Assembly: GCF_030384885.1 (NCBI RefSeq)
Contig: NZ_CP128613.1
Length of the DNA: 64,000 nucleotides
Direction: 5' to 3' (one strand)
From: Escherichia coli
GTDB taxonomy: Bacteria; Pseudomonadota; Gammaproteobacteria; Enterobacterales; Enterobacteriaceae
In this document: positions 3,078-12,375 of the stretch, piece after piece
Numbering within the stretch: position 1 is the first letter of the stretch
How the letters are laid out: every line of letters starts with the position of its first letter
The notes under the pieces: generated by a model
What the model was told of the DNA's origin: nothing
Databases searched by the model: none
Seen by the model: only the letters and a program-made list of their open reading frames with translations
Translations under genes and position numbers: made by a program

Positions 3078-4142
3078 TTACTTAATGAATGGGCGGGTCA
3101 GCAGACCGACAGGGCCAGTGGTGTACCAGCGACGGTTGCCGCGACTGCGTGAGTCGCGCCCAACGGCCTGCGTCAGGCGGTCGAGGATAATGGCGAGGAT
3201 CACAATCCCGACGCCGCCAACGGTGGCAAGGCCCATATCCAGACGACCGATACCGCGTAGTACCATCTGACCCAGCCCGCCGACGGCAATCATCGAGGCG
3301 ATGACCACCATAGAAAGGGCCAGCATCAGCGTCTGGTTAACGCCCGCCATTATGGTCGGCATCGCCAGCGGTAACTGAACTTTGAACAGCATTTGACGCG
3401 GGCTGGCACCGAATGAGCGCGAGGCTTCAATTAAATCCGCCGGAACCTGATTAATACCAAGAATCGTCAGACGGATAATCGGCGGCAGAGCAAAGATTAT
3501 AGTCACCACTACGCCCGGCACGTTGCCGATACCAAACAGCATGACGATTGGCACCAGATAAACAAACGCTGGCGTGGTCTGCATGGCATCAAGCAGTGGA
3601 CGAATAATTTTCGCCGCTCGCGGACTTCTCGCGAGCCAGATCCCCAACGGCAAACCTATGACGATACAGAACAGCAGGGCGGTTAACACCAGCGCCAGGG
3701 TAACCATGGCCTGCGACCAGGCACCGATTGCGCCGATGGCAATCAGCGAAACCAGCGTCGCCACGCCCATTCCGACCCCGGAAATCTGCCAGGCGATGAG
3801 AGCGAAAACGATAATCGCCACCGGCGCGGGCATACCCAGCAGCAATTGCTGGAAACCGTTGAGGATGTAATCGACCGGAACGCGCACGCCCTGAAAGACG
3901 GGACGAAAATGGGTAACGACCCAGTCGATCCCTTCAGTGACCCAACTGTCGAGCGGGATCAGCGTTTTATGGAACGGATCGAGAATATTAAAATGTTCGA
4001 CATTTGGCGCAGGCGTACTGGTCAGCCAGTCAGCGCCACCGCCGTCAGTCGGTGCAGTCGCCGGTGTACCCCAGGCGTCTGCGGATTGTGCAGCACTGTC
4101 CGCCGCTGGCGTGGTATCCCACGGATTATTTTGATCAGCCAT
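3078..4142 (-). CDS. proW: Glycine betaine/proline ABC transporter permease ProW
   Basis: 354-aa membrane protein with ABC permease signature, between proV and proX. Confidence 0.9.
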
Positions 4143-5692: not shown

Positions 5693-6661
<969 letters not shown>

Positions 6662-8806
6662 TTAAAGCGCGCAGGAGACGCAGCCTTCAATTTCAGTACC
6701 TTCCAGCGCCATCTGACGCAGGCGGATGTAGTAGAGCGTTTTGATACCTTTGCGCCAGGCGTAAATCTGCGCTTTGTTGATATCGCGAGTGGTGGCGGTA
6801 TCGGGGAAAAACAGTGTCAGCGACAGCCCCTGATCGACATGGCGAGTCGCTTCGGCGTAGGTGTCGATGATCTTTGCTGCGCCGATTTCGTAAGCGTCCT
6901 GATACAGCGCCAGATTCTCGTTAGTCATAAACGGGGCAGGGTAGTAAACGCGTCCTGTTTTGCCCTCTTTGCGTATCTCTACTTTCGCCACAATCGGATG
7001 AATACTCGACGTGGCATGGTTGATATAAGAGATGGAACCGGTTGGCGGCACCGCCTGGAGATTTTGGTTGTATATGCCATAGCGCATCACGTCGTCGCGC
7101 AGCTGCGCCCACATCTCACGGGTAGGTAACGTAATACCGCTGCGGGCAAACAGTTCGCCAACTTTCGCCGTTTTCGGCTGCCAGTTCCCTTGCAGATATT
7201 GGCTGAAATATTCACCATTGGCATAGCGTGACTGTTTGAACCCGGCGAAGGTTTCACTGCGTTCGCGCGCCAGCAACATCGAGGTACGCAGTGCGTGCCA
7301 GGTGATGGTATAGAAATAGAGATTGGTGAAATCCAGTGCTTCCGGCGAACCATAGGCGATGCCTTCTCGCGCCAGATAACCGTGTAAATTCATCTGCCCC
7401 AGACCGATAGCGTGTGAGGCGGCATTTCCGGCTTCGATGGACGGCACGCTGCGAATATGACTCATATCTGACACCGCAGTTAAACCGCGCACGGCGATCT
7501 CTACCGTGCGGGCAAAGTCGGGGGAATCCATGGTGTGGGCAATATTCAACGAACCTAAATTGCAGGAAATATCATGGCCTGTGCGGGCATAGTCGAGATT
7601 CTCGTCATACTCTGAGGCGCTGTTAACCTGTAAAATTTCTGAGCAGAGATTGCTCATATTTATGCGCCCGGCGATAGGGTTAGCACGGTTAACCGTGTCT
7701 TCATACATGATGTAGGGATAGCCGGACTCAAACTGGATTTCTGCCAGTCGCTGGAAGAAATCACGGGCGTTGATGTATTTTTTGCGGATTCGCTCATCGG
7801 CAACCAGTTCGTCATAGTGTTCACTGATGGCGATATCGGCAAACGGCTTGCCATAAACACGCTCAACGTCATAGGGCGAAAACAGTGCCATCTGCGCATT
7901 CTCTTTTGCCAGATGGAAGGTGATATCCGGGATAACCACGCCCAGCGACAGCGCTTTAATGCGGATTTTCTCGTCGGCATTTTCCCGCTTTGTATCGAGA
8001 AAACGCAGAATATCGGGATGATGGGCATGTAAATAGACTGCGCCAGCACCCTGACGAGCGCCGAGCTGGTTGGCATAGGAAAATGCGTCCTCCAGCATTT
8101 TCATCACCGGAATCACGCCAGAAGATTGATTTTCAATACGTTTAATTGGCGCGCCCGCTTCCCGCAGATTCGACAGCAAAAATGCCACGCCGCCGCCGCG
8201 TTTCGACAGTTGTAGTGCGGAATTTACCGCCCGGCCAATCGACTCCATATTGTCTTCAATACGCAGCAAAAAACAGGAAACCAGTTCGCCGCGCTGCCGC
8301 TTACCGCAGTTGAGGAATGTCGGTGTTGCAGGCTGAAAGCGTCCTGACAGCATCTCATCGGTCAGTTGCGTAGCCAGTGTTTTATCGCCTTGTGCCAGCG
8401 TCAGCGCCACCATCGTGACTCGATCGGCAAAATCTTCCAGATAATGCTTACCGTCGAATGTCTTCAACGTATAGCTGGTGTAAAACTTCCATGCTCCGAG
8501 GAATGTCTGAAAACGAAAACCGCTGGCGTGTGCGTGGGCAAACAGCGTAATGACAAAATCGCGAGAGTAGCGGTTGAGGACGTTTTCATCATAGTAACCT
8601 TCGTTGACCAGCCAGTTCAGGCGCTGCTGCTGGCTACTGAAGGTCACACTGTTCGGACGCACATGTGTCGCCATAAAGGCGTCAACGGCCTGGCGATCTT
8701 TATCGAACTGAATGCGACCTGCGCTATCGTAAAGGTTAAGCATCGCATTCAGAGCGTGGTAATCCATCGTTTCCTGCGTCAGGCGTTCTGCGGTTGTCGT
8801 TGCCAA
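6662..8806 (-). CDS. nrdE: Class Ib ribonucleotide reductase alpha subunit NrdE
   Basis: 714-aa protein with RNR catalytic motifs (NLCSEI region, C-terminal CVSCAL). Confidence 0.92.
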
Positions 8807-9189
8807 AATTCGGTTACTCCTTTACGAACGTTTTCGATATCGCTTTGCGTACCCATGAGTTCAAAGCGGTACAGCCACGGCACGCCGCATTTCCGGGCAA
8901 TCACATCTCCGGCGCGGCCATACGCCTCACCAAAGTTGCGATTACCCGAAGCAATAACGCCGCGAAGCAACGCCCGGTTATGCTCGTCGTTTAAAAAGCG
9001 AATGACCTGTCGTGGCACCGCGCCAGCTGTACCGCCGCCGCCGTAAGAGGGCACGATCAGGATGTAAGGCTCGTCTACCTGAATCCGTTCCCGCTCATTG
9101 AGCGGGATGCGCACCGCGGGCAGCCCTAAACGTTCGATAAAACGCTGCGTATTTTCGGAGCTGCTGGAAAAGTAGACGAGCTGGCTCAT
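8779..9189 (-). CDS. nrdI: Flavodoxin-like NrdI
   Basis: 136-aa ORF overlapping nrdE start, begins [17 protein letters not shown]. Confidence 0.9.
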
Positions 9190-9431
9190 GCACTGGCCGC
9201 GTGTGGCGCTGAATGCAGACGATTGATCATGTCCGGGCGGAAACCAGACCAGCTAAGATCGCCTGCAATCACTACCGGCAACTGACGAAAGCCCTGAGCA
9301 CGTAACGCTTCCGCCGCTTCAGGAACGCGATCGACATTAATCATTTCAAAATCAAAGCCCCGGTTTTCCATCGCCCGTTTGGTGGCGTGGCACTGAACGC
9401 AATCGTTACGAGTGTAAATAGTAATGCGCAT
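9186..9431 (-). CDS. nrdH: Glutaredoxin-like protein NrdH
   Basis: 81-aa ORF with CVQC redox motif, translationally coupled to nrdI. Confidence 0.9.
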
Positions 9432-9639
9432 GATTCGTATTTCCGTTTAAAATGAAGATACGGCGCGATGATACGCGTCGGGTTGTCTCTCTGCTGATAC
9501 AGAGATACTAGATGTAGTTGAAAAAAGATTCAACCATACAAGATATGGGAATTTTAGATTGATTACACCACCGATGAATGGCTCAACGGGGTAGGGGATT
9601 TTGTGTTTTTTTGCCGGGCGATTGCCCGGCATCAGGAAG

Positions 9640-10071
9640 TTACATCCGCATGGAAACGGCCAGGCGGTTAAAGCAATTCATCAGCCCGATGGCAAATGTT
9701 AAGTCGCTGATTTCTGCTGCGCTGAAATGCTCAAGCAAAGGCTGATAAACGTCGTCCTCCGCATGGGTTCGGGCAATATCGGTCACCGATTCCGCCCATG
9801 CCAGCGCCGCCCGCTCGCGATCGTCAAAATGATGGCTTACGCGCCAGCCTGCCAGGGCATCCAGCTTATGCTGCGGCACACCGGATTTGCGTAATGCTTT
9901 GCTGTGCATCTCCAGACAAAATGCGCAACCATTGATTTGCGAGACGCGCAAATAAACTAACTCCATCAGCGTAGTTTCCAGCGTGCTATTTTCCAGCGCC
10001 GTTTTGGCCTGCACCAGCGCGTTATATACCGTTGGGCTAAGTTCGTAGTAAGGCTGACGTAATGTAGTCAT
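9640..10071 (-). CDS. Carboxymuconolactone decarboxylase / AhpD-like family protein
   Basis: 143-aa protein with CxxC-containing motif (NGCAFCLEMH) typical of the AhpD/CMD fold; divergent from the adjacent MocR-like regulator. Confidence 0.7.
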   Translation of the reverse strand: MTTLRQPYYELSPTVYNALVQAKTALENSTLETTLMELVYLRVSQINGCAFCLEMHSKALRKSGVPQHKLDALAGWRVSHHFDDRERAALAWAESVTDIARTHAEDDVYQPLLEHFSAAEISDLTFAIGLMNCFNRLAVSMRM

Positions 10072-10158
10072 ACAGTTTCTCCTCTTATTAACGCCCGCAA
10101 TGTAGCACTATAATGGACTGCTAAAGAGAGCCATAAATTACCTAAAAAAGCAGACCAT

Positions 10159-11493
10159 ATGCCGCGCTATCAGGATATCGCCCGTCAGTTAAAAACGGCT
10201 ATTGAGCAAGGGGAACTGAAACCCGGCGCAAGGCTACCTTCAAGTCGTACCTGGTCGCAGGAACTGGGGGTGTCTCGATCCACTGTCGAAAATGCGTATG
10301 CTGAGCTGGTGGCGCAAGGATGGCTGATCAGGCGGGGACAGGCTGGCACATTTGTCAGTGAGCAGATATATCCGCAACAATCTACTGTACAAGTTGTGGC
10401 TTTTGCCGGTGAAAGTCAGCAACCGTTGCCATTTCAAATGGGATTACCCGCACTCGATCTCTTTCCGCGAGAGCTGTGGGCGCGGGTGATGGGGCGTCGC
10501 CTTCGTACCCAGACGCGCTTTGATTTGGCGTTAGGCGATGTCTGCGGTGAGGCGGCGTTGCGTGAGGCAATAGTTGATTACTTACGCGTTTCACGTGGGA
10601 TTGATTGTCAGCCAGAGCAGGTCTTTATCACTCACGGTTATGCGGCCTCAATGGCTTTAATTCTGCACGCGCTGGCGAAACCGGGAAACGGGATGTGGAT
10701 GGAAGATCCCGGCTTTCCACTGATTCGCCCGATTGTCACTCGCCACGGTGTGGAAATTTTGCCTGTGCCGGTTGATGACAACGGACTGGATATCACAAGA
10801 GGAATACAAAATTATCCTGATGCGTGTTTTGCCCTGATAACACCAGCACACCAAAGCCCGCTGGGTGTGGCGCTCTCTTTAGCGCGCAGGCATCAGATAC
10901 TGGAATGGGCAGAGCGTAGTCAGGCATGGATTATTGAAGATGATTATGACAGTGAGTTTCGCTATCACGGTAAGCCGTTACCGGCGTTAAAAAGTCTCGA
11001 TGCACCGCAGCGGGTAATTTATGCCGGAACATTCAGCAAAGCACTATTTCCTGCATTGCGCTGTGCGTGGCTGGTGGTGCCGGTGAAGCAAATTGCACAA
11101 TTCCGCCACCAGGCGTCACTGGCTCCATGTGCGGTACCTGTTCTATGGCAGAACACACTGGCAGACTTTCTTCGCGAGGGGCATTTCTGGCGGCATCTGA
11201 AGAAAATGCGTCAGCATTATGCTCAACGTCGGCAATGGATTGAGCAAGCGTTGACGCAGCAGGGATTTCAGGTTGTGCCGCAGAAAGGTGGTATCCAGAT
11301 GGTGATCAGAATGATGGGCGATGATATTGCCCATGCGCGTAAAGCCAATGCTGCAGGCCTTGCGGTGCAGGCACTTAGCGACTGGCGTATCCGCTCAAGT
11401 GGGGAAGGTGGATTACTTCTCTCTTTTACCAATATCGTTAACGAAGGTATGGCGCGACAGGTAGCACAACAATTACGTAAAGCCTTAAGCTAA
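10159..11493 (+). CDS. MocR/GabR-type transcriptional regulator (GntR HTH fused to PLP-dependent aminotransferase-like domain)
   Basis: 444 aa; N-terminal GntR-like region (LPSSRTWSQELGVSRSTVENAYAEL) and C-terminal aminotransferase-like region (FSKALFPALRCAWLVVP). Confidence 0.75.
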   Translation: MPRYQDIARQLKTAIEQGELKPGARLPSSRTWSQELGVSRSTVENAYAELVAQGWLIRRGQAGTFVSEQIYPQQSTVQVVAFAGESQQPLPFQMGLPALDLFPRELWARVMGRRLRTQTRFDLALGDVCGEAALREAIVDYLRVSRGIDCQPEQVFITHGYAASMALILHALAKPGNGMWMEDPGFPLIRPIVTRHGVEILPVPVDDNGLDITRGIQNYPDACFALITPAHQSPLGVALSLARRHQILEWAERSQAWIIEDDYDSEFRYHGKPLPALKSLDAPQRVIYAGTFSKALFPALRCAWLVVPVKQIAQFRHQASLAPCAVPVLWQNTLADFLREGHFWRHLKKMRQHYAQRRQWIEQALTQQGFQVVPQKGGIQMVIRMMGDDIAHARKANAAGLAVQALSDWRIRSSGEGGLLLSFTNIVNEGMARQVAQQLRKALS

Positions 11494-11518
11494 AAAACCC
11501 CGAAATCAGGCTTCGGGG
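11492..11518. terminator. Bidirectional rho-independent terminator between MocR-like gene and ygaM
   Basis: Hairpin CCCCGAA-loop-TTCGGGG flanked by an A-tract on the plus strand (T-tract on minus). Confidence 0.55.
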
Positions 11519-11549
11519 TCAAAGACGCGTATTTATTATCATTGTTGCA

Positions 11550-11879
11550 CTACGATTTGCGCATGCTTAACAGTGCGCCGATAAAAATACCTACCGCAGC
11601 TGCTGTACCCACGCTACACCAGGGTCTTTCACGAACAAAAGAATCCGCGCAGCCAACGGCATCGCGCGCGGCTTGCTGGACGCGAGTACGACCATGCATT
11701 CGCGCTCTGGTTTCTTTCAGTAGAGCCTGCGCTTTACTACGAGCGGCTTCGGCTTCCCCTTTGGCGTCGCTGCCCCAGGACTTCAATACAGACTCGAGAC
11801 TGTCAGCCAATTGATTGACATCATTCTGGATATCCTGCACGCCATCATCAACGTCGTTGCGGTTCGGTCGGTTAAACAT
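11550..11879 (-). CDS. ygaM: DUF883 membrane-anchored ribosome-associated protein YgaM
   Basis: Protein MFNRPNRNDVDDGVQDIQNDV... with C-terminal TM segment; start chosen at the internal Met of the 113-aa ORF. Confidence 0.8.
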   Translation of the reverse strand: MFNRPNRNDVDDGVQDIQNDVNQLADSLESVLKSWGSDAKGEAEAARSKAQALLKETRARMHGRTRVQQAARDAVGCADSFVRERPWCSVGTAAAVGIFIGALLSMRKS

Positions 11880-12030
11880 ATGATCCCCCATTAGAATTCG
11901 ATGTAATTTTCAGTGTAGACCATAATTTTCTTAACTGAGGTTCATCGCGGCTTTATGGACTTTTCTGAAAGCGTTGTGAATGCGCAATCAGGTAAGGTAG
12001 GACCGCAGTTGATAATAACGAGGATCAAAT

Positions 12031-12375
12031 ATGTATTTACGACCAGACGAGGTGGCGCGCGTACTTGAAAAAGTCGGTTTTACTGTCGATGTGGTAACCC
12101 AGAAAGCTTATGGCTACCGCCGTGGGGAAAATTATGTCTATGTTAATCGCGAAGCGCGAATGGGACGTACCGCCCTGGTGATTCATCCAACATTAAAAGA
12201 ACGTAGTTCAACACTGGCTGAACCCGCTTCCGATATTAAAACGTGCGACCATTACCAGCAATTTCCGCTCTATTTAGCGGGTGAACGTCATGAGCATTAC
12301 GGTATCCCACATGGCTTTAGTTCGCGTGTTGCGCTTGAACGTTATTTGAATGGTTTATTTGGCGAAGCCAGTTAA
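12031..12375 (+). CDS. ygaC: Uncharacterized protein YgaC
   Basis: 114-aa ORF at the conserved position between ygaM and alaE. Confidence 0.8.

Follow-up and report, generated by a model that had tools for sequence, protein, structure and literature searches.

A divergent MocR-type regulator and AhpD-like thiol protein gene pair at the nrdH/ygaM site of Escherichia coli and other Enterobacteriaceae

The locus and its two genes

The window analysed is a stretch of 64,000 nucleotides from an Escherichia coli chromosome (contig NZ_CP128613.1, assembly GCF_030384885.1). Two divergent genes, at 9640-10071 on the minus strand and 10159-11493 on the plus strand, are found in this window between nrdH and ygaM, separated by a spacer of 87 bp (10072-10158). 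The wider neighbourhood consists of nrdHIEF, ygaM, ygaC, alaE and stpA. To a distance of about 4 kb left and right of the pair there are no pdx genes; it has no pca genes or ahpC adjacent to it, and no mobile-element genes or repeats around it. Both genes can be considered real, because their dN/dS ratios are 0.05-0.12 between Escherichia alleles. Rfam gave no match in 9000-12100, in the corresponding O157 locus or in that of Raoultella terrigena; the R. terrigena locus carries a leader insertion. The features of the locus are as follows.

9186-9431, minus strand: nrdH, flanking the pair
9613-9630, no strand: GC-rich hairpin GCCGGGC-GATT-GCCCGGC, directly past the CMD stop codon
9640-10071, minus strand: CMD/AhpD-like thiol protein gene, 143 aa (Pfam CMD, NCBIfam AhpD core domain)
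9916-9927, minus strand: CAFC motif (CxxC), C49-A-F-C52 of the CMD protein
10079-10084, minus strand: Shine-Dalgarno sequence GAGGAG of the CMD gene, read directly and present here in most aligned sequences
10107-10112, minus strand: invariant -10-like hexamer TATAGT, putatively for CMD
10109-10114, plus strand: invariant -10-like hexamer TATAAT, putatively for mocR
10113-10158, no strand: three-box operator-like site of 46 bp; on the CMD strand ATGGTCTGC, T6 tract, N9, ATGGCTCTC, N4, GCAGTCCAT
10113-10121, plus strand: box 3, ATGGACTGC, the inverted partner of box 1, abutting the -10-like hexamers
10126-10134, minus (CMD) strand: box 2, ATGGCTCTC, a direct repeat of box 1
10144-10149, no strand: A/T tract beside box 1, conserved in the alignment columns
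10150-10158, minus (CMD) strand: box 1, ATGGTCTGC, adjoining the mocR ATG
10159-11493, plus strand: gene for a MocR-type PLP-dependent transcription factor, 444 aa (Pfam GntR, Aminotran_1_2)
11038-11040, plus strand: codon of the predicted PLP lysine K294, from alignment with GabR K312
11496-11520, minus strand: ygaM terminator hairpin, near the right deletion edge
11550-11891, minus strand: ygaM, flanking the pair

The regulator has a GntR-type wHTH at its N-terminus (PF00392, E 1.4e-17, residues 4-66) and an aminotransferase-like domain spanning residues 100-440 or thereabouts (Aminotran_1_2, PF00155, E 5.8e-26, residues 126-388), and can be aligned over its full length with the PdxR and GabR structures. 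Its best solved relatives are Bacillus clausii PdxR (7PQ9, E 1.4e-62) and Bacillus subtilis GabR (E 6e-57). In the alignment with GabR, K294, D261, Y263 and R301 correspond to K312, D279, Y281 and R319, and D261, Y263, S293, K294 and R301 are invariant across 17 orthologs and distant relatives. The protein thus combines the wHTH, the aminotransferase-like fold-type I domain and the cofactor residues of MocR regulators with an operator-like site of TGG-core repeats beside its own gene. The arginines that bind the GabR ligand are not kept in the pocket (R207 is replaced by L188 and R430 by D408), and nothing diagnostic stands in their place.

The CMD protein matches both Pfam CMD (PF02627, E 2.4e-20, 72.8 bits) and the NCBIfam AhpD core domain (TIGR00778, 52.5 bits, cutoff 27.8). 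These domain matches bear out the gene types given in the preliminary description, a MocR/GabR-type regulator and an AhpD-like CxxC protein. The full-length model of the mycobacterial-type AhpD (TIGR00777) gave only 30.2 bits, below its cutoff of 191.95. The closest solved relative is PA0269 of Pseudomonas aeruginosa (2IJC/2O4D/7XW1), with 42% identity over 141 aa in a gapless alignment (E 1e-31) and the same relay of Glu, Cys-x-x-Cys and His. All 81 distinct CMD orthologs share the motif SQINGCAFCLEMH unchanged, together with the proposed proton-relay residues E37, C49, C52 and H56, and each of them has Phe51 at the position of the relay residue Tyr50 of PA0269. PA0269 reduces H2O2 weakly (Clarke et al., 2011, PMC3141380). 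The E. coli enzyme most likely reduces a peroxide, a disulfide or an electrophile via C49 and C52. Outside the Enterobacteriaceae, the CMD gene has two kinds of operon partner, an FMN-dependent azoreductase-like reductase and a GNAT acetyltransferase. Such partners speak for a role in redox or electrophile detoxification and not in B6 metabolism. The Salmonella gene STM2804, located about 5 kb from stpA (a Salmonella locus of the present set has matching synteny), has been described as a gene without known function, and work with mice has used it as a neutral site for insertions, so no strong phenotype would be expected under those conditions.

The intergenic three-box site

The spacer, which the preliminary description had proposed to search for operators, contains the three-box site of direct and inverted repeats at 10113-10158. 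Aligning the spacer between genera and matching a degenerate pattern brought out its inverted repeat; a repeat search with a 6-nt seed missed it, because the arms differ at the fifth base in this strain. Each box contains ATGG, and the layout is '-> -> <-', the commonest motif structure of MocR regulators, with a conserved TGG (PMC5320631). The site is unique in the window, with no match in 100 shuffles, and occurs once per locus in 61 loci, each time in the spacer between regulator and CMD gene; 62 distinct sequences can be aligned over it without gaps. A 56-bp core (10103-10158) shows 83% identity, versus 49% at the fourfold sites of the adjoining gene, and the spacer is identical at 87 of 87 positions between alleles whose mocR genes share just 89.7% identity. 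A 61-bp query (10100-10160) was found at an identity of at least 99% in 1245 of the 1387 E. coli carriers, and no carrier genome among the 1387 has a second near-identical copy of the site. In Kluyvera, ATGGTCTTA at box 1 is paired with TAAGACCAT at box 3, a compensatory change affecting both arms. In distant relatives, whose MocR proteins share 45-47% identity with this one, the inverted repeat is another, ATGTCCCA-N30-TGGGRCAT, but its span of 46 bp is equal.

The two -10-like hexamers overlap, together spanning 10107-10114, and the three-box site overlaps both. A consensus promoter scan called no promoter in the spacer (10072-10158), and the -10 assignments therefore rest on the invariant hexamers only. 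The block CCATTATAGTGCTA, which is nearly invariant between genera, runs through the CMD hexamer. Relative to these putative promoters, box 2 lies at about -26 to -34 for CMD, and box 3 at -13 to -21 for CMD and at -8 to +1 for mocR. Box 2 could instead be a mere -35-like promoter element, and the A/T tract at 10144-10149 is possibly a bending element, by analogy with B. clausii PdxR.

Distribution, ancestry and loss

The pair is intact in 1276 of 5426 complete E. coli genomes (23.5%) and partial in a further 111; the remainder lack it. In those partial loci that were inspected, mocR is deleted at its N-terminus; natural mocR-deletion strains have a deletion of 589 bp. Carriers include Nissle 1917, ST95/APEC and O157:H7. 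In K-12 MG1655, the spacer between nrdH and ygaM is just 247 bp long and contains neither gene, an absence already suspected in the preliminary description. Divergence between alleles within the species is unusually high (dS 0.28-0.40).

Such a patchy distribution, with a dS resembling that of recombination imports from other Escherichia, could suggest an accessory islet acquired horizontally between nrdH and ygaM by some E. coli lineages. Its origin as an islet is, however, very unlikely, as the pair occupies exactly this ygaM/nrdH site, in the same orientation, in about 15 genera of Enterobacteriaceae. Besides Escherichia albertii and E. whittamii, it is found there in Citrobacter, Salmonella, Klebsiella, Raoultella, Enterobacter, Kluyvera, Yokenella, Pluralibacter, Pseudocitrobacter and Shimwellia. 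Sequence identity falls along taxonomy, from 90-97% in E. coli to 86-88% in E. albertii and about 75-79% in Citrobacter and Salmonella, and the GC content of the pair is host-like, equal to that of its flanks. No plasmid copies were found, in keeping with the lack of mobile-element genes and repeats around the locus, and the K-12 spacer retains diverged remnants as far as the hairpin at 9613-9630. The shared site in about 15 genera, the host-like GC content, the absence from plasmids and the low dN/dS together indicate that the pair is ancestral and, consequently, that K-12 carries a deletion. The pair is thus an ancient enteric unit, which a deletion has removed from K-12, as from about three quarters of E. 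coli. The preliminary description had considered it likely to be a small accessory module, a term that fits only in part because it suggests an addition. The value of this result lies mostly in annotation hygiene: an ancestral enterobacterial unit lost by K-12 should not be recorded as an acquired island.

Firm anchors between K-12 and the window cover 9432-9546 and 11492-11549, with a short match at 9586-9605. Homology resumes at 11492, the right edge of the deletion, and the hairpin at 9613-9630 lies at the left edge of the segment missing from K-12. A base-exact scar was sought by global alignment with low gap extension, but this yielded scattered spurious matches and was rejected. The K-12 sequence ATTCACCAGGCA resembles the hairpin arm ATTGCCCGGCA at 9 of 12 positions, which is suggestive only. 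The same hairpin was considered as a terminator of the CMD gene and rejected as a canonical one, because its T-run (9606-9612) lies on the side that does not suit a CMD transcript.

Proposed regulation and function

The link between regulator and target is already known as an in silico prediction for the orthologs STM2803 and CKO_04020. The regulog 'Spro_3719 - Enterobacteriales' comprises STM2803, CKO_04020, KPN_03002, Spro_3719 and others, with COG2128 as the target (Suvorova and Rodionov, 2016, Microb Genom, PMC5320631, Table S1b). These entries are orthologs of the E. coli pair and have the same composition, an orthologous regulator with a single AhpD-family target. The E. coli copy is not listed there, because the species is represented by K-12, which lacks the pair. 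The MocR orthologous group also includes Pseudomonas fluorescens PFL_2191, with COG2128, AcpD and GNAT; the study is purely computational and gives no effector, function or sign of regulation (PMC5320631). Together with the strongly conserved operator-like site in the shared spacer, this prediction lends support to the regulator-target relation proposed in the preliminary description. P. aeruginosa PA0269 is likewise predicted to be under the control of a neighbouring MocR regulator, PA0268, but the latter belongs to a different orthologous group from the E. coli regulator and has a cupin (COG1917) as a co-target (PMC5320631). A literature search covering MocR with CMD/AhpD, PA0268, STM2803/2804, KPN_03002 and ECA2654 found no functional experimental work, and no experimental study of the MocR/AhpD-like pairing; 53 predicted regulons hold a COG2128 gene of the AhpD family.

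Among the characterised systems, B. subtilis GabR (4N0B) has the same MocR architecture and cofactor residues. It is modelled as a divergent autorepressor-activator in which the effector forms an external aldimine, but its GABA carboxylate ligands, R207 and R430, are those replaced in the E. coli regulator, and its target is gabTD rather than the predicted AhpD-like gene. The GabR operator consists of two direct ATACCA repeats. B. clausii PdxR (7PQ9, 7ZLA and others) is likewise divergent and autoregulated, and its PLP lysine is conserved in the E. coli regulator. Its site of 48 bp consists of a pair of direct motifs, an inverted one and a DNA-bending A/T tract, and in the holo form the protein binds to the inverted pair (PMC10450172). 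The 46-bp site of the E. coli pair has the same composition, but the half-site (ATGGTCT) differs, the E. coli regulator is shorter (444 aa with a short linker, versus 478 aa), the target is an AhpD-like gene rather than the PLP synthase genes pdxST, and, unlike in B. clausii, there is no sign that PLP itself is the signal.

The reading favoured here, with good though not overwhelming probability taken as a whole, is that of a vertically inherited chromosomal divergon of Enterobacteriaceae, in which a MocR regulator predicted to carry PLP on K294 binds the 46-bp site and controls its own gene and the CMD gene, the latter probably encoding a small thiol redox enzyme. A dimer would sit on the three-box site within the 87-bp spacer. 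The geometry, and the parallels with PdxR of B. clausii and GabR of B. subtilis, suggest that its wHTH domains would contact boxes 1 and 3, the inverted pair, and that the DNA would be bent over the protein. With box 3 positioned over both putative promoters, both would be shut in this model, giving autorepression and CMD repression. A small molecule would then react with PLP, forming an external aldimine or another adduct, and binding would move to the direct boxes 1 and 2, with box 2 covering the -35 region, or the protein would be released; CMD would be switched on. Judged by sequence, the regulator could act on CMD as a repressor, as an activator or as both.

It is improbable that the regulator is instead a PdxR controlling vitamin B6 biosynthesis or salvage with PLP as its sole effector, even though several RefSeq records (PGAP) name the E. 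coli gene pdxR, the best solved relative is B. clausii PdxR, L188 replaces the GABA-binding Arg207 that PdxR also lacks, and the protein reaches 408.6 bits with the NCBIfam PdxR model (NF052282), whose cutoff is 320. A Pollutimonas protein with 47% identity, the regulator of a GNAT-CMD-reductase operon, also passes this model, at 414.6 bits, and its score on the rhizopine MocR model is higher still. The cutoff is therefore loose and the model unspecific. The divergent partner is AhpD-like, not pdxST, pdxK or pdxH, and no pdx gene is nearby. Moreover, K-12 and most E. coli lack the regulator gene and still make B6 via PdxA/PdxJ. The orthologs are also placed in the Spro_3719 group, apart from the PdxR groups (Suvorova and Rodionov, 2016, PMC5320631). 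The PGAP label is probably an over-call, and the name PdxR should probably be avoided. Still less credible, to the point of being hardly tenable, is a true 4-carboxymuconolactone decarboxylase of aromatic catabolism, as the Pfam family name and the RefSeq product name of the CMD protein would have it: all significant NCBIfam matches are AhpD or peroxidase-related, with no PcaC model among them, the invariant CxxC-x3-H with its upstream Glu forms an AhpD-type relay, and pca genes are missing from the surroundings. The genes might also be mere neighbours, with the regulator autoregulating via the site, its true targets elsewhere and CMD expressed independently. Since the whole site lies within -8 to +38 of the putative mocR promoter, its conservation could be due to autoregulation only, and the scan of this genome for further sites covered 64 kb. 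This arrangement nevertheless appears about as doubtful as the PdxR assignment, given that divergent pairing is retained in every Enterobacteriaceae locus examined, that a 45-47% identical MocR faces a CMD-containing operon in betaproteobacteria and Pectobacterium, that the invariant block runs through the CMD hexamer, that the E. coli carriers have no second near-identical site, and that AhpD-family COG2128 genes occur in so many predicted MocR regulons (PMC5320631).

Starting from the favoured divergon, the pair is a compact and tractable case for asking what MocR regulators paired with AhpD-like proteins sense: the operator-like site is sharply defined, carriers are known, and natural nulls exist for the whole unit and for mocR only. 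It does not overturn current understanding. A speculative answer, to which a rather low probability is assigned, is that the regulator is a sentinel using PLP as a reactive probe for a toxic small molecule and switching on a thiol detoxifier. The trigger could be a nucleophile that attacks PLP, for example a hydroxylamine, a hydrazine, cyanide or an aminooxy compound; alternatively, an oxidant or electrophile could play this part. The detoxifier could be joined by the FMN reductase and the acetyltransferase outside the Enterobacteriaceae. The MocR-type regulator MpaR of P. aeruginosa responds to cyanide, as proposed via a PLP adduct (PMC10790758), and offers a MocR precedent in which a reactive small molecule, not a nutrient, is sensed; its mechanism is itself a hypothesis, its targets differ (ccoN4 and others), and no close relation to the E. 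coli regulator has been shown. In Escherichia, where the CMD gene is followed by no canonical terminator and read-through is therefore conceivable, transcription from an induced CMD gene might also continue into nrdHIEF, the operon of the stress-type ribonucleotide reductase.

Gene order and occurrence in Escherichia coli

The divergent gene pair lies between nrdH and ygaM, in the following gene order.

5693-9431, minus strand: nrdF, nrdE, nrdI and nrdH
9640-10071, minus strand: CMD gene (143-aa ORF, AhpD-like small protein), after nrdH
9916-9927, minus strand: CxxC motif of the CMD gene (C49-A-F-C52)
Between the CMD gene and mocR: spacer of 87 bp
10159-11493, plus strand: mocR (444-aa ORF, MocR-type regulator)
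After mocR: ygaM (minus strand), then ygaC, alaE, stpA, ygaP and ygaV

The coordinates, gene types, CxxC motif and spacer reported in the preliminary description were all correct, as judged from ORFs and domain matches in the window, and the pair is indeed missing from this position in K-12, the nrdH-ygaM spacer of MG1655 being 247 bp long and devoid of both genes. The K-12 alignment covers 9432-9546 (112/115), is weak at 9586-9605 and resumes from 11492; K-12 lacks about 1.86-1.89 kb of the segment and retains the ygaM terminator hairpin (11496-11520).

The nrdH-ygaM flanks are present in 5421 of 5426 complete E. coli genomes and the full pair in 1276 of the 5426 (23.5%), always chromosomal and single-copy; carriers include O157:H7, Nissle 1917, ST95/APEC O1:K1:H7 and strain 042. 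Module DNA, in any amount, was found in 1387 of these genomes, 111 of which therefore carry a partial copy. In the partial copies inspected, a common 589-bp deletion from the mocR start codon to about codon 196 (junction GCAGACCA/GATGTGG at 2010-2019 of L089, a locus from another genome, equivalent to window 10158 to about 10746) takes out the start along with the wHTH (winged helix-turn-helix), and leaves the operator nearly intact and the CMD gene intact. Strains with this deletion are natural regulator-null strains.

A putative operator in the spacer

A search of the spacer for repeat operator sites, as envisaged in the preliminary description, revealed inverted and direct boxes, gapless in the 62 distinct sequences (about 15 genera) aligned. 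The 56-bp gap-free block reads, on the CMD strand, ATGGTCTgcTTTTTt-N7-AATATGGCT.TCT-N4-cAG.CCATTATAGTGCTA.

10150-10158: box 1, ATGGTCTGC (CMD strand), abutting the mocR ATG
10144-10149: A/T tract
10126-10134: box 2, ATGGCTCTC (CMD strand)
10113-10121: box 3, ATGGACTGC (plus strand)

Box 1 is repeated directly by box 2 and in inverted form by box 3; in the MocR family, this '-> -> <-' arrangement around a TGG core is the one found most often (PMC5320631). Both arms of the inverted repeat are altered together in Kluyvera (ATGGTCTTA and TAAGACCAT), as would be expected if a single protein read both. Compared with non-Escherichia genera, identity is 83% in the 56-bp core and 49% at 4-fold degenerate sites of the adjacent CMD gene, a comparison between pairs of common ancestry for which the Fisher P is only indicative. 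The spacer is identical (87/87) between the window and the O157:H7 allele, despite identities of 89.7% for mocR and 93.5% for the CMD gene. A 61-bp query (10100-10160) matched 1245 of the 1387 carrier genomes at ≥99% identity, with no second near-identical copy in any of them. The degenerate operator pattern occurs once in the 64-kb window and in none of 100 shuffles, and once per locus in 61 loci, always within the CMD-mocR spacer. Regulators 45-47% identical to this one (Bordetella, Pandoraea, Pollutimonas, Pectobacterium, Zoogloea and Superficieibacter) have a different wHTH sequence and another inverted repeat, ATGTCCCA-N30-TGGGRCAT, of equal outer span (46 bp).

The invariant CCATTATAGTGCTA includes TATAGT on the CMD strand (10107-10112) and TATAAT on the mocR strand (10109-10114). 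A consensus scan called neither candidate spacer promoter, so the promoter geometry is one that we infer: the hexamers would be the -10 elements of the CMD and mocR promoters. That would place box 3 at -13 to -21 relative to the CMD promoter and at -8 to +1 relative to the mocR promoter, with box 2 over the CMD -35 region and the whole site inside a mocR leader of roughly 38 nt. With boxes 1 and 3 occupied, both promoters should be shut; with boxes 1 and 2 occupied, the CMD gene could be activated. This putative switch mirrors the published behaviour of B. clausii PdxR, the site of which combines, within 48 bp, an A/T tract with three motifs, two of them direct and one inverted; the inverted pair is clamped by the holo form, which bends the DNA, and the apo form, with comparable affinity for all three motifs, is the activating one (PMC10450172).

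An insertion of 70-80 bp with internal inverted repeats is found in the CMD leader of Raoultella terrigena and Enterobacter sp. 10-1 (loci L038 and L058, the latter from R. terrigena; operator to CMD start, about 3880-4000); an Rfam scan of L058 gave no match.

The two proteins and their possible function

The CMD product matches Pfam CMD (PF02627, E 2.4e-20) and exceeds the cutoff of the NCBIfam AhpD core domain; for the full AhpD subfamily model it falls short (30 bits vs cutoff 192), and PcaC is not among its NCBIfam matches. It aligns without gaps, at 42% identity, with P. aeruginosa PA0269, which has a Glu36, Cys48, Tyr50, Cys51, His55 relay and weak thiol-dependent H2O2 reduction activity (PMC3141380). 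E37, C49, C52 and H56 are invariant in 81 orthologs, whereas the relay Tyr is always replaced by Phe51. Outside Enterobacteriaceae, the CMD gene shares operons with genes for a GNAT acetyltransferase and for an FMN reductase that is flavodoxin-like and of azoreductase type, and often faces a MocR gene; this context points to redox or electrophile handling.

The regulator combines a GntR wHTH (residues 4-66) with a class I/II aminotransferase-like domain, and thus has MocR architecture. Among proteins of solved structure, B. clausii PdxR (E 1.4e-62) and B. subtilis GabR (E 6e-57) match it best. K294, D261, Y263 and R301 align with the PLP ligands of GabR and are invariant in 17 relatives, but the GABA ligands are not retained (R207 to L188, R430 to D408). 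Some RefSeq records name the gene pdxR because it passes NCBIfam model NF052282 (408.6 bits vs cutoff 320). Clearly different MocR regulators pass this model as well (compare window 10159-11493 with 1999-3420 of L077, a locus from another genome), so the PGAP 'pdxR' labels on this gene look unreliable; the Pollutimonas regulator of a GNAT-CMD-reductase operon scores 414.6 bits, and higher still on a rhizopine MocR model. The partner gene in the window is not a pdx gene, and we regard the PdxR name as a probable over-call, though PLP might conceivably be the sole effector. A further reading, which has a precedent in MpaR and cyanide (PMC10790758) but seems improbable, makes the regulator a PLP-based sentinel of reactive small molecules.

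The regulator-target idea is not new, this being a unit of known kind with orthologs already catalogued. The comparative reconstruction of MocR regulons by Suvorova and Rodionov (2016; PMC5320631) includes a regulog 'Spro_3719 - Enterobacteriales' (CKO_04020, KPN_03002, STM2803, Spro_3719 and others), each member having a single target, COG2128 of the AhpD family (Table S1b). COG2128 appears in 53 of their regulons; P. fluorescens PFL_2191, from the MocR orthologous group of the Spro_3719 regulog, has COG2128, AcpD and GNAT targets, and PA0268, predicted to control PA0269, belongs to a separate group. Only its absence from K-12 kept the E. coli pair out of their catalogue. STM2804, about 5 kb from stpA, has been called a gene of no known function and has served as a neutral site for a marker (PMC3723669). 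No experimental work on the two genes was found in the literature searched. The observation in the preliminary description is confirmed and its interpretation supported in part; the modest novelty here lies in the precise operator and how extremely it is conserved, in the three E. coli allelic states and in loss as the direction of the polymorphism.

Ancestry and allelic variation

The order ygaM, mocR, divergent CMD gene, nrdHIEF also occurs in Citrobacter koseri, Klebsiella aerogenes and Enterobacter ludwigii, on contigs picked as encoding close homologs of the small protein. A wider survey of one genome per species yielded 80 loci, and tblastn on these revealed matching arrangements in Escherichia albertii, E. 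whittamii, many Citrobacter, Salmonella diarizonae, the Klebsiella oxytoca group, Raoultella, Enterobacter, Yokenella, Pluralibacter, Pseudocitrobacter and Shimwellia; Kluyvera keeps ygaM beside the pair, but without adjoining nrdH. Sequence identity of the pair drops in parallel with taxonomic distance, its GC content (0.51-0.52) equals that of the flanks, and dN/dS between Escherichia alleles is 0.05-0.12 for both genes. The polymorphism is most simply read as the outcome of vertical descent, with the pair deleted in most E. coli lineages. The term "accessory", as used previously, holds for presence or absence within E. coli and not for origin, given the shared site across genera and the flank-like GC content.

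Comparison of window 6662-12375 with L002, the O157:H7 locus, showed the nrdE-ygaC stretch to be unusually diverged for two E. coli strains, with nucleotide identities of 95.3% (nrdE), 93.5% (CMD), 89.7% (mocR) and 93.6% (ygaM) and dS of 0.28-0.40 in the pair; alaE and stpA are about 99% identical. This divergence around the polymorphism points to allelic lineages of long standing, or to imports from other Escherichia.

About 94 extra bases with REP-like sequence lie between the mocR stop and the ygaM terminator in O157:H7 (L002 5085-5180) and Escherichia sp. E1V33, and are absent from the window strain. Past the CMD stop, at 9606-9630, a GC-rich hairpin has its T-run upstream, not downstream, for the CMD transcript, so there is no canonical terminator between CMD and the nrdHIEF promoter region in Escherichia; in Pseudocitrobacter and Kluyvera, a hairpin and then a T-run follow CMD. 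Beside this hairpin, upstream from nrdH, K-12 and the window strain differ strongly at 9547-9585; over the 115 bases nearest nrdH they are 97% identical, and this conserved part contains CCATATCTTGTATGG, which we take to be an NrdR-box-like sequence.
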